Assembly: GCA_039591655.1 (NCBI GenBank)
Contig: JBDHDE010000048.1
Span: 1 to 21,371, forward strand
DNA: 21,371 nt
From: Gemmatimonadota bacterium
Lineage (GTDB): Bacteria; Gemmatimonadota; Gemmatimonadetes; Gemmatimonadales; GWC2-71-9
Reading direction: 5' to 3'
The translations under genes and the position numbers were made by a program. The notes beneath the pieces are model-generated. The model saw nothing but the letters and a program-made list of their open reading frames with translations, was not told where the DNA came from and ran no database searches. Below, piece by piece: positions 275 to 19,761 of this stretch (the stretch's first letter is position 1; each line of letters begins with the position of its first letter).

Positions 275-697
275 TCAGGGTACGGGGGTCGTCGTGTCCG
301 GTTCGGCTCCGATCATACGGTACATCGTGCCCGGCGCCGACGTCCGCGGGCCAATGATGATCCACAGCGGCGGCCCGTCCCGCTGGGCATGGAGCGTGAC
401 GTTTCCGTCGGCCGACCGGGTGTCGCCCACGATCTCCCAGCCCCGCTGCACCAGCGTCCGACGGTACCATGCGGCCACGGTATCGGGCGGGTAGCCGCTC
501 GTCCACGTGGTCTGCAAGGCGTCGCTGGTCCCCGAGTAGGACGTCAATACCGAGAGCGGGAACACCCATACGCCCCGCATCACGTTGGTGGCGGGCATCT
601 CCGGCGGGGGCTCCGAATCGCCGCAGGCGGCCAGGCCCAGCCCGAGCACCAGGGCTGCGGCAGCGAAACCGGTCGTCCAGCAACGCCACATATGCAT
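275..697 (-). CDS. Predicted lipoprotein of unknown function (start could be ATG at 691)
   Basis: 140-aa ORF with a hydrophobic stretch ending in lipobox LAA|C, then a globular-looking domain (WYRRTLVQRGWEIV). It ends 16 nt before the EamA start. Confidence 0.75.
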   Translation of the reverse strand: MHMWRCWTTGFAAAALVLGLGLAACGDSEPPPEMPATNVMRGVWVFPLSVLTSYSGTSDALQTTWTSGYPPDTVAAWYRRTLVQRGWEIVGDTRSADGNVTLHAQRDGPPLWIIIGPRTSAPGTMYRMIGAEPDTTTPVP

Positions 698-742
698 AGA
701 GCGAGAAGCCTAGCGCTCCGCAGGTGCAGTGGCAAGCGCTGC

Positions 743-772
743 ATGGTCCGGCCCTCCCGAACCCCGTATATT
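743..772 (+). promoter_or_regulatory. Possible sigma70-type promoter for the yebC run
   Basis: TATATT at 767-772 stands out as AT-rich in the GC-rich intergenic region. The -35 candidate (ATGGTC, 743-748) is poor. Confidence 0.35.
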
Positions 773-888
773 TCGCTCACCGCAGGCCGTGATTCGGGCC
801 GGATCGCGGCATGCGGATCGTCGTTCACCCTCGTTGGCAGACGTCCGCCCACCAGCATTCAGCGGTCCGGGCGTGGCCGGGAGACAGC

Positions 889-1638
889 ATGGCCGGTCAC
901 AGCAAGTGGGCGCAGATCAAGCGCAAGAAGGCAGCGACCGACGCGAAGCGCGGCGCCCTGTTCACCAAGCTCATCAAGGAGATCACCGTTGCGGCGCGGC
1001 ACGGCGGCGGCGATCCTGACGGCAACCCCCGCCTCCGCACGGCGATCGACACGGCCAAAGCCGCCAACATGCCCAACGACAACATCGAGCGCGCCGTAAA
1101 GAAGGGGACGGGCGAGCTCGAGGGCGTGCGCTACGAGGAGGCTACCTACGAGGGCTACGGCCCCGGCGGGGCCGCCATCATGATCCACGTCACGACCGAC
1201 AACCTGAACCGCACGGTGGCGTCGATCCGCCACATCTTCTCCAAGAACGGCGGCAGCCTCGGCGAGCCGAACTCGGTGGCGTGGATCTTCGACAGGCGCG
1301 GGCAGATCTATCTGGACGCCGGCCGGTACCCCGAGGACGCCGCGATGGAGGCGGCGCTGGAGGTGGACGGCGAGGACATGGTCACCGAGGGCGACCAGCA
1401 CGTCGTCACGGTCCGAGCCACGGAGCTGCACCGCGCGCGCGACGCCCTGCACCGCCACGGTGTCGAGGCGGCGGGCGCCGAGATCGCGCTGATCCCCCGT
1501 ACGACCGTGCGGGTCGAGGGCAAGGACGCCGAGCAGCTGCTCAAGCTGATGGACGCCCTGGAAGACCACGAGGACGTCTCCAAGGTGTTCAGCAACTTCG
1601 ACATCGACGCGGAGACCTTGGCGGCGGTCGCCGAGTGA
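889..1638 (+). CDS. yebC: YebC/PmpR family protein
   Basis: MAGHSKWAQIKRKK...FTKLIKEIT...NPRLR...YEGYGPGG...TDN.NRT signature. Start set at ATG 889 after GGGAG. Confidence 0.97.
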   Translation: MAGHSKWAQIKRKKAATDAKRGALFTKLIKEITVAARHGGGDPDGNPRLRTAIDTAKAANMPNDNIERAVKKGTGELEGVRYEEATYEGYGPGGAAIMIHVTTDNLNRTVASIRHIFSKNGGSLGEPNSVAWIFDRRGQIYLDAGRYPEDAAMEAALEVDGEDMVTEGDQHVVTVRATELHRARDALHRHGVEAAGAEIALIPRTTVRVEGKDAEQLLKLMDALEDHEDVSKVFSNFDIDAETLAAVAE

Positions 1639-2123
1639 CGGTGCGCGTGCTGGGCGTCGATCCCGGCACGGCGGCGACGGGGTTCGGAGTGGTGGAGCCC
1701 GTGGCCGGGCGGCCCGGCCGCCTCGTCGAGTGCGGCGTGATCCGCACCAATTCCCGAGACAAGCTGTGGCGCCGCCTGGACATCATCCACGAGGGCGTCA
1801 CCGAGCTGATCGGGCGGCACCGGCCGACCGTGCTGGCCCTGGAGAGCGTGTTCTACGCCAAGAACGTGCGGACGACGGTGACGCTGGGTCACGTGCGAGG
1901 CGTCATCCTGCTGGCTGCGGCCCAAGCCGGGCTCGAGGTAGCGGAGTTCACGCCCCGGGCCATCAAGAAGAGCGTGACGGGAGCCGGGGGTGCCGCCAAG
2001 CCGCAGGTAGGCCACATGGTTCAGCGACTGCTCAACCTCAAGGATCCGCCCCGGCCCAGCGACGCCGCCGACGGGGTGGCGGTGGGCCTGACATATCTCC
2101 TCACCCGGAGCCGAACCCGATGA
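1635..2123 (+). CDS. ruvC: Holliday junction resolvase RuvC
   Basis: VLGVDPG...ALESVF...IKKSVTG.G.A.KPQV...DAADG motifs. GTGA overlap with the yebC stop. Confidence 0.96.
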   Translation: MTVRVLGVDPGTAATGFGVVEPVAGRPGRLVECGVIRTNSRDKLWRRLDIIHEGVTELIGRHRPTVLALESVFYAKNVRTTVTLGHVRGVILLAAAQAGLEVAEFTPRAIKKSVTGAGGAAKPQVGHMVQRLLNLKDPPRPSDAADGVAVGLTYLLTRSRTR

Positions 2124-2713
2124 TCGCCGGGATCAGCGGCAGGCTGCTGTCGAAGACGGGGGATCGCGTGATCGTCGCCACCACCGGCGGCGTCACATAC
2201 GAGATCGGCGTGCCGCTGGGGGTGCTTGAGCAGCTCCCGGGCGCGGGGGCCGAGGTGGCCCTCAAGACGGTACCGGTGGTGCGGGAGGACGGGTGGGCGC
2301 TCTACGGGTTCATAGAGGAGCACGAGCGGGACGTCTTCCAGCGACTGCTGGGGGCGTCGGGCGTGGGCCCCCGGCTGGCCCTGGCACTGGTCTCGACGTT
2401 GGGCGGCGCGCGGGTGGTGCGGTCCATAAAGGAGAACGACCTTGCGGCCCTCTGTACCGTACCGGGGATCGGTAAGAAGACCGCCGAGCGCATCGTGCTG
2501 GAACTCAGGGACCGGCTGGGTGACATCGCCGTGCCCGGTGCGCCGGAGGCGGCCGCCGGGCCAACGGACCAGGCCGTCCAGGCACTCATCAACCTCGGTT
2601 ACAATTCCGCGGATGCCGAGCGCGCCGTGCGCGAGTCGATCTCACAGCAGGGCGCTGGCGAGCCGGTTGACCTCATCCGCGGTGCACTACAACTGTTAAC
2701 CAAGTCCAAATAG
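2120..2713 (+). CDS. ruvA: Holliday junction branch migration protein RuvA
   Basis: MIAGISG...GGVTYE...VREDGWALYGF...GVGPRLAL...VPGIGKKTAERIVLELRD...AVQALINLGY. ATGA overlap with ruvC. Confidence 0.96.
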   Translation: MIAGISGRLLSKTGDRVIVATTGGVTYEIGVPLGVLEQLPGAGAEVALKTVPVVREDGWALYGFIEEHERDVFQRLLGASGVGPRLALALVSTLGGARVVRSIKENDLAALCTVPGIGKKTAERIVLELRDRLGDIAVPGAPEAAAGPTDQAVQALINLGYNSADAERAVRESISQQGAGEPVDLIRGALQLLTKSK

Positions 2714-2726
2714 ACGAAATCGACCG

Positions 2727-2891
2727 ATGCTAACCGCCGAGTGGATCTGCACGTCTTGTGGCGCGACCAACCGCAAGCTGGTCGGGCCGGAGCAGACGGA
2801 AGCCGTCGACAAGTGCGTCACGTGCCGCACTAAGCACCGGGTGACGAAGGCCGAGCGCCCGGTACGCTGGGAGGCGACGACCAAGAAGTGA
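2727..2891 (+). CDS. Small Cys4 zinc-ribbon protein, 54 aa (apparently too short for the ORF track)
   Basis: Manual translation: [54 protein letters not shown]. Two CxxC pairs. It fills the ruvA-ruvB gap and its TGA overlaps the ruvB GTG (GTGA). Confidence 0.85.
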
Positions 2892-3896
2892 ACCGCACCG
2901 AGATCACGACCCCCGAAGCGCTCCCCGAGGAGAGCTCGGCGGAGGCCTCGCTCAGGCCCTCGCGGCTGGACGAGTTCGTCGGGCAGGCGACGGTCAAGGA
3001 GAACCTCCAGATCGCCATCGACGCCGCGCGCCAGCGGGCCGAGCCGCTGGACCACACCCTGTTCTTCGGGCCGCCTGGACTCGGCAAGACGACGCTGGCG
3101 ATCCTCATCGCCCGGGAGATGGGCGTGAACATCCGCACCTCCAGCGGGCCCGTGCTGGAGAAGCCGGGGGACCTGGTGGGACTCCTCACCTCGCTGCGGA
3201 GCGGAGACGTCCTGTTCATCGACGAGATCCACCGCCTGCGCCCCACGCTGGAGGAGTTCCTCTACCCCGCGATGGAGGACTACCGGGTCGACGTGCGAAT
3301 CTCGGAGGGGCAGAGCGCGCAGACGATCCCCATGGAGGTCGAGCCCTTCACGCTGATCGGCGCCTCCACACGCTACGGCATGCTCACACCTCCTATGCGC
3401 GCGCGCTTCGGGCTGGTGGAGCGGCTGGGCTACTACCCCACTGACGATCTGCAACGGATCGTGCTGCGCTCGGCGGGGATCCTATCGGTTGAAACCGATA
3501 CGGCCGGCTCCCACGAGATCGCCAAGCGGAGCCGTGGCACTCCCCGCGTCGCGAACCGGCTACTGCGGCGGGTGCGGGACTACGCCCAGGTGCGGGCGGA
3601 CGGCAGCATATCGCGGGAGGTCGCTGAGGCGGCGCTCAGCCGGCTCAACGTGGACGAGTACGGGCTCGACGACATGGACGCCCGGATCCTCCAGATCATC
3701 ATCGAGAAGTTCGACGGCGGGCCGGTGGGACTGAACACCATCGCCGTGGCCGTCGGCGAGGACGCCGGCACCCTCGAAGAGGTGTACGAGCCGTTCCTCA
3801 TCCAGCAGGGCTTCCTGCACCGCACGCCCCGAGGCCGCACGGCGAGCCCGGCCGCCTACCGACACTTCGGCTTCACCCCGCCCGCCGGGGCGCCCG

Positions 3897-6419
<2,523 letters not shown>

Positions 6420-17748: not shown

Positions 17749-19761
17749 CTACGGCGAAACGCTTGCCCTCGCCCTCACCGGCTCCACCAGGAACACCCAC
17801 ACTATCGCCCCCGCCAACGCCGCTGCCACGAACAGCTGCGTCACGAACGTCTGATACGTGGGGAAGATTCCCAGGGCGGGAAGTGATGGCAGCCAGTCCA
17901 GCGGTGTGATGGAGATGACACCGGCTTCTTGCAGCTCCGCGACTCCCTTACCCGCGAAGCTGAACGCCATGAGGTAGAGCAGCGCGCTGGTCACCACGAA
18001 GAACTGCTTGAGGGGGATGCGCACGCCGTAGCGCTCGATGCCCAAGTAGACCGCGGCGAGAATCACCACACCGACGACGATGCCGGCCACGATACCGCCG
18101 GTCGCGGCAGCCGTTCCGTCGGACGTCGTGAACAGCGCGGCGTAGAACAGCACGGTCTCGAACCCCTCGCGATACACCGCCAGGAACGCCACGGCGGCCA
18201 GCGCCCACGCCCGGCCACTCCCCAGGGCGCGCTTCATCTGTCCCCCGACGAACTGCTGCCAGCGCCGCGCCTCGACCTTGGAGACCAGCCAGTACGACAC
18301 CCAGAACAGCACGGCGGCGGCCGCCAGCATCGTGACCCCCTCGAGCACCTCCTGCTGGGCCGGCGCGGCCCGGAACAGGGTGGCGAACGCGGCCGCGGTT
18401 AGCAGACTGGCCACCACCGCCGCCAACACGCCGAGGCCGATATCGCGCTTGCGCTCGGGCGCACCGGCGCGCACCAGGAAAGCCACCAGCGCCCCGATGA
18501 TAAGGATCGCCTCCATGCCTTCCCGCACCAGGATGATCAGCGACTGGACGAACAGCGCTCGGGGAGATGCGGTGGCGGTCAGTACTGTGACCGCTGCGTC
18601 GAGGGCCTGCTCCACTTCGCTCCGTGCAGCTTGCAGCCGCGGTGCAGCAGCGCGTCCTTCGACCGCAATCCGAAACTCGGCAAAGGCCTGCTCGACACGG
18701 CGGGCGGCGGCGGCGTTCCGCGCCTTGACCGAGCTTTCGATGCCCTCGAACACGAGGTAGGCATCCAGCGCTTGGCGGCTCGCACCGTCCCGATCACCCT
18801 CGAGGGCCGAGTGCACCGCTTCCTCCAGAACTACCTTTGCCCGGTTCGCGGTGCGCGCCGCCGCGAGCTTCCGGTCGGCGCCCAGCTCTTCGGCGGCCCC
18901 CGCGACGCGCGCGTACGCGACGATGTGGCTCAGCGCCGGGTCATCGCGCCGCAAGCCGGTGCGGGGAGCGAGCAGCGCTGCAAGTGAGTCGTCGCTCAGC
19001 TGCGCAGTTGCTGCGAAGTCGCTCACCATTACCGCGCAATCGACGCACCGCTCGGCCAACGCCCGGGCACCCTCCTCCGTTGCGTCGTTGGGCCAGCGCA
19101 GCATGGCGGCGTACAGGGCGAGGGCCCAGCGTTCGCTCTCGGTGAGCTGCTCGCCGAACCCCGGCATCGCGGTGCCTGCCACGCCCACGTTGATCTTGCG
19201 GAAGAACTCGAGCGGCGGCACAGCGCCGAGGGCGTCACCGTCGGTGAGATCGGCTGGGGGCGGCGTGAGAGTGGACGCCAACTCGCCGTCGCCCGCTCCG
19301 GTGATCCCGTGGCACGAGGCGCAGTACTGCCGGTACAGCGCGCGCCCCCGTACGAGAGATGGCGCATCGGCGGGCATCGGGTCGAGCGGCGCGCCGACCA
19401 CTGTCTCGAGCGCTTCGCGGAGAGCGTCGAGCTCGCTGCGCAACTCGGTCTCGGGAGCAAGAGCGGCGACACCCGTCGCCAGGCGATCGAGGTACGGCAG
19501 CGCCGCGTCGCCCGCGGCGGGGCTCAGCGCCGCTGCGCTCGCCCGCGCCTCCTCCAGGAACAGCCGCGCCTCGCCCAACTCCTCCTCCGACACCACCGCA
19601 CCGGCCACAACTCCCTCGGCGTACTCGGCCAGGGCAATGGTCGCCACGTCGGCGATGCGGCGTGCCACTGCGACGTCATCCTGCTGCGCGCCGGCCACCC
19701 GCGGGGCAGAGCTGGTGATTACCAGGAAGCCGACAAGGAGAGACCTGCAGTGAGATGCCAC
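17749..19761 (-). CDS. Cytochrome c / FTR1 iron permease fusion (PbrT/EfeU-like)
   Basis: Signal peptide, heme motif CASCH (19309-19323) with distal AMPGF, and a C-terminal multi-TM domain with two RExxE motifs (REGME, REGFE). Double stop TAG TAA. Confidence 0.93.
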   Translation of the reverse strand: MASHCRSLLVGFLVITSSAPRVAGAQQDDVAVARRIADVATIALAEYAEGVVAGAVVSEEELGEARLFLEEARASAAALSPAAGDAALPYLDRLATGVAALAPETELRSELDALREALETVVGAPLDPMPADAPSLVRGRALYRQYCASCHGITGAGDGELASTLTPPPADLTDGDALGAVPPLEFFRKINVGVAGTAMPGFGEQLTESERWALALYAAMLRWPNDATEEGARALAERCVDCAVMVSDFAATAQLSDDSLAALLAPRTGLRRDDPALSHIVAYARVAGAAEELGADRKLAAARTANRAKVVLEEAVHSALEGDRDGASRQALDAYLVFEGIESSVKARNAAAARRVEQAFAEFRIAVEGRAAAPRLQAARSEVEQALDAAVTVLTATASPRALFVQSLIILVREGMEAILIIGALVAFLVRAGAPERKRDIGLGVLAAVVASLLTAAAFATLFRAAPAQQEVLEGVTMLAAAAVLFWVSYWLVSKVEARRWQQFVGGQMKRALGSGRAWALAAVAFLAVYREGFETVLFYAALFTTSDGTAAATGGIVAGIVVGVVILAAVYLGIERYGVRIPLKQFFVVTSALLYLMAFSFAGKGVAELQEAGVISITPLDWLPSLPALGIFPTYQTFVTQLFVAAALAGAIVWVFLVEPVRARASVSP

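Follow-up and report, generated by a model that had tools for sequence, protein, structure and literature searches.

The stretch of DNA analysed here (21,371 nucleotides, hereafter the window) keeps intact ruvC, ruvA and ruvB genes in one run, as do canonical bacterial RuvABC loci; unlike them, it presents an additional conserved gene between ruvA and ruvB. What this gene encodes, and whether its product works with the RuvAB machine, is the question that the locus raises. The same-strand run has the order yebC-ruvC-ruvA-X-ruvB-queA-tgt, where X is the gene under study and the other six all score above their NCBIfam cut-offs. Its first gene is yebC/pmpR at 889..1638 (+; NF001030, 335.6 bits, cut-off 243), followed by ruvC at 1635..2123 (+; TIGR00228, 126.4 bits, cut-off 100.65), which overlaps the ruvA start. 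The full-length ruvA of 197 residues at 2120..2713 (+; TIGR00084, 171.6 bits, cut-off 85) and the ruvB of 349 residues at 2888..3937 (+; NF000868, 491.6 bits, cut-off 282) are separated by a gap of 174 nt.

This gap holds a plus-strand reading frame (2727..2891) that begins with ATG at 2727, 13 nt past the ruvA stop, and closes with a TGA ending at 2891. Conservation, pN/pS and the predicted fold mark it as the gene for a Cys4 zinc-ribbon protein. A second reading of the sequence agrees with the first-pass annotation on its basic features: the frame encodes 54 residues with the layout W6-I-C8-T-S-C11-G-A-T-N15, 14 residues, C30-V-T-C33 and a basic tail; its stop shares GTGA with the ruvB start (GTG at 2888), the junction of yebC with ruvC being likewise GTGA and that of ruvC with ruvA ATGA; and its third codon positions are rich in GC (GC3 0.889), similar to those of ruvA (0.853), ruvC (0.883) and ruvB (0.92). 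That annotation had also called the gene hidden. The exact protein already stands in the NCBI, JGI/IMG and Logan gene calls, and relatives are annotated as, for example, "hypothetical protein"; the gene is thus unnamed, not hidden.

Distribution and conservation of the 54-residue protein

The reading frame at 2727-2891 is a real, conserved gene, far beyond chance. A search with the single protein found a match in 22 of 24 genomes of the same family and in 0 of 16 genomes from two other families of the order. With a 22-row profile, one copy each was recovered from 121 of the 124 family genomes, while none of 176 genomes from eleven other families of the phylum (including one unpublished genome, G180) gave a match, which bears out the proposal of a lineage-specific gene. 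No second locus or second copy was found in the family genomes surveyed. Stops in relatives, which the annotation had named as evidence against a gene, are absent from the match in every one of the 121 genomes. In the core of 81 unique loci, a subset of the 121 that comprises best matches, weakest matches and matches with long open frames, stops number 0 in the coding frame and 45, 39, 1, 24 and 53 in the remaining five, the loci having been chosen by their match in the coding frame itself.

Twelve residues are invariant in these 81 loci (A4, E5, W6, C8, C11, N15, R16, D28, C30, C33, H37 and W48), eight of them other than cysteine. The four cysteines are thus present in 81/81 loci, and so are W6 and N15, the positions for which conservation had been in question. 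The most divergent member, at 37% identity, lacks several otherwise invariant residues and still lies between ruvA and ruvB. Among 13 close genomes the uncorrected pN/pS is 0.30 for the gene, close to the 0.28 of both ruvA and ruvC, with 0.15 for ruvB; by this measure the gene is under purifying selection like ruvA. Across 86 family sequences the protein has a median pI of 9.2 and a median net charge of +4.

Wider searches return the same lineage. In a pattern search of 185,579 species genomes, 472 of the 482 matches encode a relative; the best 80 are all recorded under Gemmatimonadota, and carriers are labelled Gemmatimonadota or Gemmatimonadales. The family profile gathered 1,617 clusters at 90% identity among 3,565 candidates. 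Against 1.84 billion representatives it gave 47 matches, and the 20 of these that we examined are family members, chimeric or frameshifted calls of the ruv region, or repetitive noise. Viral contigs gave three pattern matches, none of which was confirmed. The protein family is a mark of a single large Gemmatimonadales family, of which all genomes here are metagenome-assembled.

No fusion of the gene was seen in genomes. Twenty matches with long open frames (230-414 aa) were considered as fusions and rejected as out-of-frame overlaps with ruvA. A search among longer proteins, in which 7,999 candidates were scored, gave 10 matches. In P0172 the ribbon is joined to a RuvB without its N terminus, and in P0170 to a truncated RuvA; each is one sequence on a short contig (3.7 and 1.3 kb, respectively), so that both are likely assembly chimeras or one-off deletions.

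Predicted fold and protein-family placement

The protein is predicted to be a five-stranded, LysW-like zinc ribbon in which C8, C11, C30 and C33 would hold one zinc; the metal may instead be iron, as in rubredoxin. The AlphaFold2 model from 86 rows (pLDDT 91) has five strands, the fifth at residues 49-52, and that from 22 rows (pLDDT 86) has four strands and a loose tail. Covariation within the protein is consistent with the predicted strands (E25-T40, Q23-K41, A42-E49), and the pairs T40-E49 and A42-E49 agree with the fifth. The Cys4 zinc-ribbon character ascribed to the protein at first sight is thereby supported at the level of a confident prediction.

Structural comparison places LysW/ArgW (PDB codes 3wwl and 3vpb), likewise proteins of 54-56 residues with four cysteines, as the best whole-length match (Z 5.6 and 5.1, rmsd 1.8-2.0 Å; next unrelated row 3.6). 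The top LysW match extends over 45 residues at 1.8 Å, and its Z of 5.6, being below 8, may reflect only a common fold. In Foldseek, LysW/ArgW gave TM scores of 0.60-0.61 with E values of 0.35-0.96, and neither model gave a match at E ≤ 0.001. LysW is reported to depend on an EDWGE motif at its C terminus, closing with a terminal Glu (PMC10433800); unlike LysW as described there, the window protein and the aligned members lack EDWGE, and their C terminus is variable. The protein also differs from LysW in being basic and in having no recognised lys or arg genes beside it.

Sequence comparison gives no clear assignment to a described family: in Pfam, NCBIfam and PHROGs the protein reaches no cut-off or clear match; a PDB sequence search gave only weak matches (mS66, rubredoxin, GATA, bL33); and the ESM Atlas returned unnamed clusters first and then assorted zinc ribbons with low counts of shared features. 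The FmdB-type proteins (PF09723, TIGR02605), among which we take Ruc to belong, are likewise stand-alone with the spacing CxxC-x17/18-CxxC in the same N-terminal register. Of four zinc-ribbon sets tested with hhalign, FmdB is the closest profile (62%, E 7.6e-5), ahead of CPXCG (27%), MJ0042 (2%) and a phage ribbon (about 1%); the FmdB value is not specific, because the unrelated control pair FmdB and CPXCG reaches 56%. The FmdB cut-offs are not reached (14.8 against 34.4 for PF09723, 17.5 against 31.3 for TIGR02605), and 21 of 22 members match TIGR02605 below its cut-off. Unlike FmdB, the family has invariant motifs peculiar to it (TNR, D-x-C, H and RPVRW) and no long disordered tail, and true FmdB genes stand separately in genome G000. 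The CPxCG...DCxxCC motif of CPXCG proteins (PF14255) is absent, and CPXCG is not among the Pfam matches listed.

The first-pass annotation had pointed to RanBP2/NZF. The half motif W-x-C-x2-C-x3-N is indeed held in common with that class (PF00641), for which the annotation's consensus has a spacer of six residues between the N and the second CxxC pair, whereas it is 14 here. The kinship does not survive: PF00641 scores 13.3 bits against a cut-off of 27 and covers residues 5-16 only, structural comparison gives Z 2.5 over 28-29 residues, and the closest fold is that of LysW. Many family members carry at JGI the label Rpo12/Rpb12 (RpoP), a subunit of archaeal and eukaryotic RNA polymerase. We reject this identity: NF001607 matches 3 of 22 members (best E 0.021) with about 13-15 bits against a cut-off of 89, PF03604 matches 6 of 22 (best E 0.037), and Rpo12/Rpb12 reaches Z 3.1 with the first model and falls outside the top 50 with the better one; such a label seems to come from a generic match on four cysteines. 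The protein is a family of its own within the Cys4 zinc ribbons, neither RanBP2/NZF nor RpoP. Within a known protein class it makes up a new family that has gene calls but no name, and no description of it came up in the literature searched; database labels often wrongly make it L40e or a subunit of the archaeal RNA polymerase.

Gene order and natural losses

The place of the gene is nearly constant. Of the 81 unique loci, 80 have ruvA upstream and 80 have ruvB downstream, both misses being contig ends. The order ruvA-X-ruvB recurs in 80/80 further loci, a set that partly overlaps the 81 (76 tight, four with inserted genes), so the synteny that the annotation had proposed to check is kept wherever the contig extends far enough. 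The neighbouring junctions are just as constant: the pair is adjacent in 78/78 loci for yebC-ruvC, 79/79 for ruvC-ruvA, 77/80 for ruvA-X, 78/80 for X-ruvB and 65/69 for ruvB-queA. The synteny fits a role in the Ruv system, but unrelated neighbours keep theirs at least as well. Since the run lies on one strand with junctions of -4 to +13 nt, the gene would be co-transcribed with ruvCAB; a promoter and terminator scan of positions 600-4000 stayed at chance level, and Rfam gave no match in the window.

The junction between ruvA and ruvB accepts other genes. FkbM methyltransferase and glycosyltransferase genes lie beside the 54-residue gene, on one or both sides, in 4 of the 80 loci (L176:2054-4955, L196:3012-4955, L198:2205-2963 and L210:2200-2961), and in two of the 80 about 1.85 kb of other genes separate it from ruvB. 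In several genomes of the sister family f2 a class I/II aminotransferase gene stands between ruvA and ruvB (L103:1314-2468; also L095, L100 and L102), one copy having been profile-scanned and the others recognised by sequence. For many loci of f2 and f4, the stretch examined ahead of ruvB showed no ruvA.

Five family genomes gave no match to the protein. In three of them (G009, G020 and G262) ruvB has no match either, an indication of gaps in the assembly; from the other two, G075 and G089, the gene has truly been lost. The ruvA of G075 runs straight into ruvB with an overlap. What G089 retains is a cysteine-free remnant of the tail, 21 codons long and with W48 changed (L090:2060-2130, minus strand), which shares bases with the stop of ruvA and with the start of ruvB. 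When the search was loosened, neither genome gave a homologue at another place; one weak match in G075 was rejected as a CPXCG-type protein by its motif. A FastTree tree of RuvB, with every non-carrier and one half of the carriers included, places the two at separate positions inside the family. In the family f3, ruvA adjoins ruvB in 8/8 loci, and RuvB is 78-80% identical to that of the window. The gene is occasionally lost and dispensable, and the two natural losses, together with the sister family without the gene, provide ready-made controls.

In RuvB and RuvC, no alignment column sets the carriers apart from f3 and from the losses alike. In RuvA, W59 and G95 are invariant in 79/79 carriers, kept in both losses and rare outside the family; W59 lies two residues past what we take to be the acidic VRED pin. 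Between-protein covariation over 127 paired rows (effective number 68) reached a top Z of 5.0, with control pairs dominated by phylogeny.

Possible roles in and beyond the RuvAB machine

As a single mechanism, an optional accessory of RuvAB is the best that we can offer, and we hold it tentatively. The protein would likely be made together with RuvA and RuvB; E5, W6, N15, R16, D28, H37, W48 and the RPVRW tail may form one binding surface, which could dock on RuvA, RuvB or branched DNA, and the docked protein might then adjust branch migration or loading. Since intact ruvA-ruvB pairs also occur where the gene is missing, the protein would modulate the machine and would not be one of its core subunits. 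Modulators of RuvAB have a precedent in Bacillus subtilis, where DisA is reported to bind RuvB and to limit branch migration (PMC10804225). Single copy, fixed position (also in the most divergent member), invariant residues, the pN/pS of 0.30, basic charge and the LysW-like fold are what we count for such a helper, and they give it a real though minority chance; a gene order that is rigid anyway, the insertions at the junction, the two losses, f3 without the gene and the want of a RuvB or RuvC column that marks the carriers are counted against it and hold it to that level. If it is a true RuvAB partner, this textbook machine would have a dedicated small regulator within its own operon. The literature search, outside which lay most subscription journals and supplements, found no such RuvABC subunit and no description of the gene.

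A stronger form of the same idea is somewhat unlikely: here the protein would be a family-specific fourth RuvABC component not described before, a ribbon with the LysW fold that is produced alongside RuvA and RuvB and binds either the motor or branched DNA, with branch migration under its control. Its parallel would be a phage system in which the zinc ribbon is likewise encoded directly before ruvB, there fused to a region resembling domain III of RuvA (17 proteins aligned; hhalign 87.7%; no Pfam match in the three scanned). Unlike the phage system, which has no full ruvA directly upstream, the 54-residue protein stands alone beside a full-length RuvA and has no RuvA-III fusion, and, as the two ribbons are not detectably related (about 1%), the parallel is one of analogy only. 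In the phage loci (L264-L305), what precedes ruvB is either such a fused ribbon or an acidic protein, unrelated and about 135-147 residues long.

The chief alternative takes the protein for a passenger of the operon, a zinc ribbon whose conserved partner belongs to a process other than recombination (translation, tRNA modification or transcription, for example), and we give it a chance only a little short of even. Its gene would have entered a constitutive housekeeping run, at a junction tolerant of insertion, in the ancestor of the family, and stayed because the run rarely rearranges. The link to Ruv is weak because the neighbours are equally fixed, the ruvA-ruvB junction takes unrelated genes, the gene was lost twice and its overlap with ruvB is limited to 33 of 77 loci; moreover, the losses came without a distinguishing change in RuvA, RuvB or RuvC, the run also holds yebC, queA and tgt, and the weak matches of the protein spread over many unrelated classes of zinc ribbon. 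Against this stand a gene never found elsewhere or in two copies and the fact that no alternative partner was identified. Genome G000 encodes bL33 and FmdB elsewhere, so the protein does not replace those; as G000 also has RecO, replacement of a RecO zinc finger was set aside along with that of bL33. The recO gene of G000 (L225:1498-2250) encodes a zinc-finger region with only three cysteines (C-x2-D ... C-x2-C). As a class, such roles outside recombination are at least as likely as the RuvAB helper, and each member mechanism alone is less likely than it.

That the protein acts as a redox or zinc switch in the manner of Ruc (Rv0991c) is improbable. Here oxidation of the cysteines would free the zinc and activate a chaperone-like or regulatory activity, perhaps shielding the products of neighbouring genes under stress. 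The attraction lies in the FmdB-type profile, the best of those compared, with its shared N-terminal register and the matches to TIGR02605 below cut-off, and in Ruc itself, which carries its cysteines as CxxC-x17-CxxC, holds one zinc and becomes active as a chaperone when oxidised (PMC7448276). Ruc requires a long disordered C terminus (PMC7448276), whereas the tail here is short, conserved and predicted to form a strand; no chaperone genes were recognised in the window, and the FmdB probability is unspecific in view of its control.

The junction with ruvB has also been read as the point of the gene, the annotation having offered a peptide whose translation controls RuvB. Over 77 loci, for which distances rest on automatic start picks, the gene overlaps the ruvB start in 33 and lies within 20 nt of it in 62, with gaps of up to 177 nt elsewhere. 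Translational coupling is plausible in the window and its close relatives, and it is not the conserved feature of the family. That the frame is a translated spacer carrying ribosomes from ruvA to ruvB and setting the RuvB dose, its protein incidental, is most improbable: the GTGA overlap here and the close spacing in most loci, a ruvB apparently starting at an overlapping CTG in one relative and a cysteine-free remnant in G089 that still overlaps both neighbours would suit it, but the 12 invariant residues, a pN/pS equal to that of ruvA, the confident predicted fold, the gaps and 1.85-kb inserts before ruvB and the direct overlap of ruvA with ruvB in G075 argue against it and leave the earlier suggestion largely unsupported. 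In two loci the ruvB start that overlaps the stop of the gene is apparently non-standard (CTG in L012, ATA in L006); these could be coupling-dependent starts or assembly errors.

Three further features of the window deserve mention. RuvB ends with Q-x-S-I-F-D (window 3900-3937), which resembles a beta-clamp binding motif; Q339 is nearly invariant and covaries with F343, and other families have a similar tail. Divergent from yebC, on the minus strand, lies a frame for 140 residues with a lipoprotein-like N terminus (275-697; no NCBIfam match at E 1e-8). At 17749-19761, also on the minus strand, a frame for 670 residues carries in its translation a CxxCH motif, followed by a region that we take to resemble the FTR1 iron permease.
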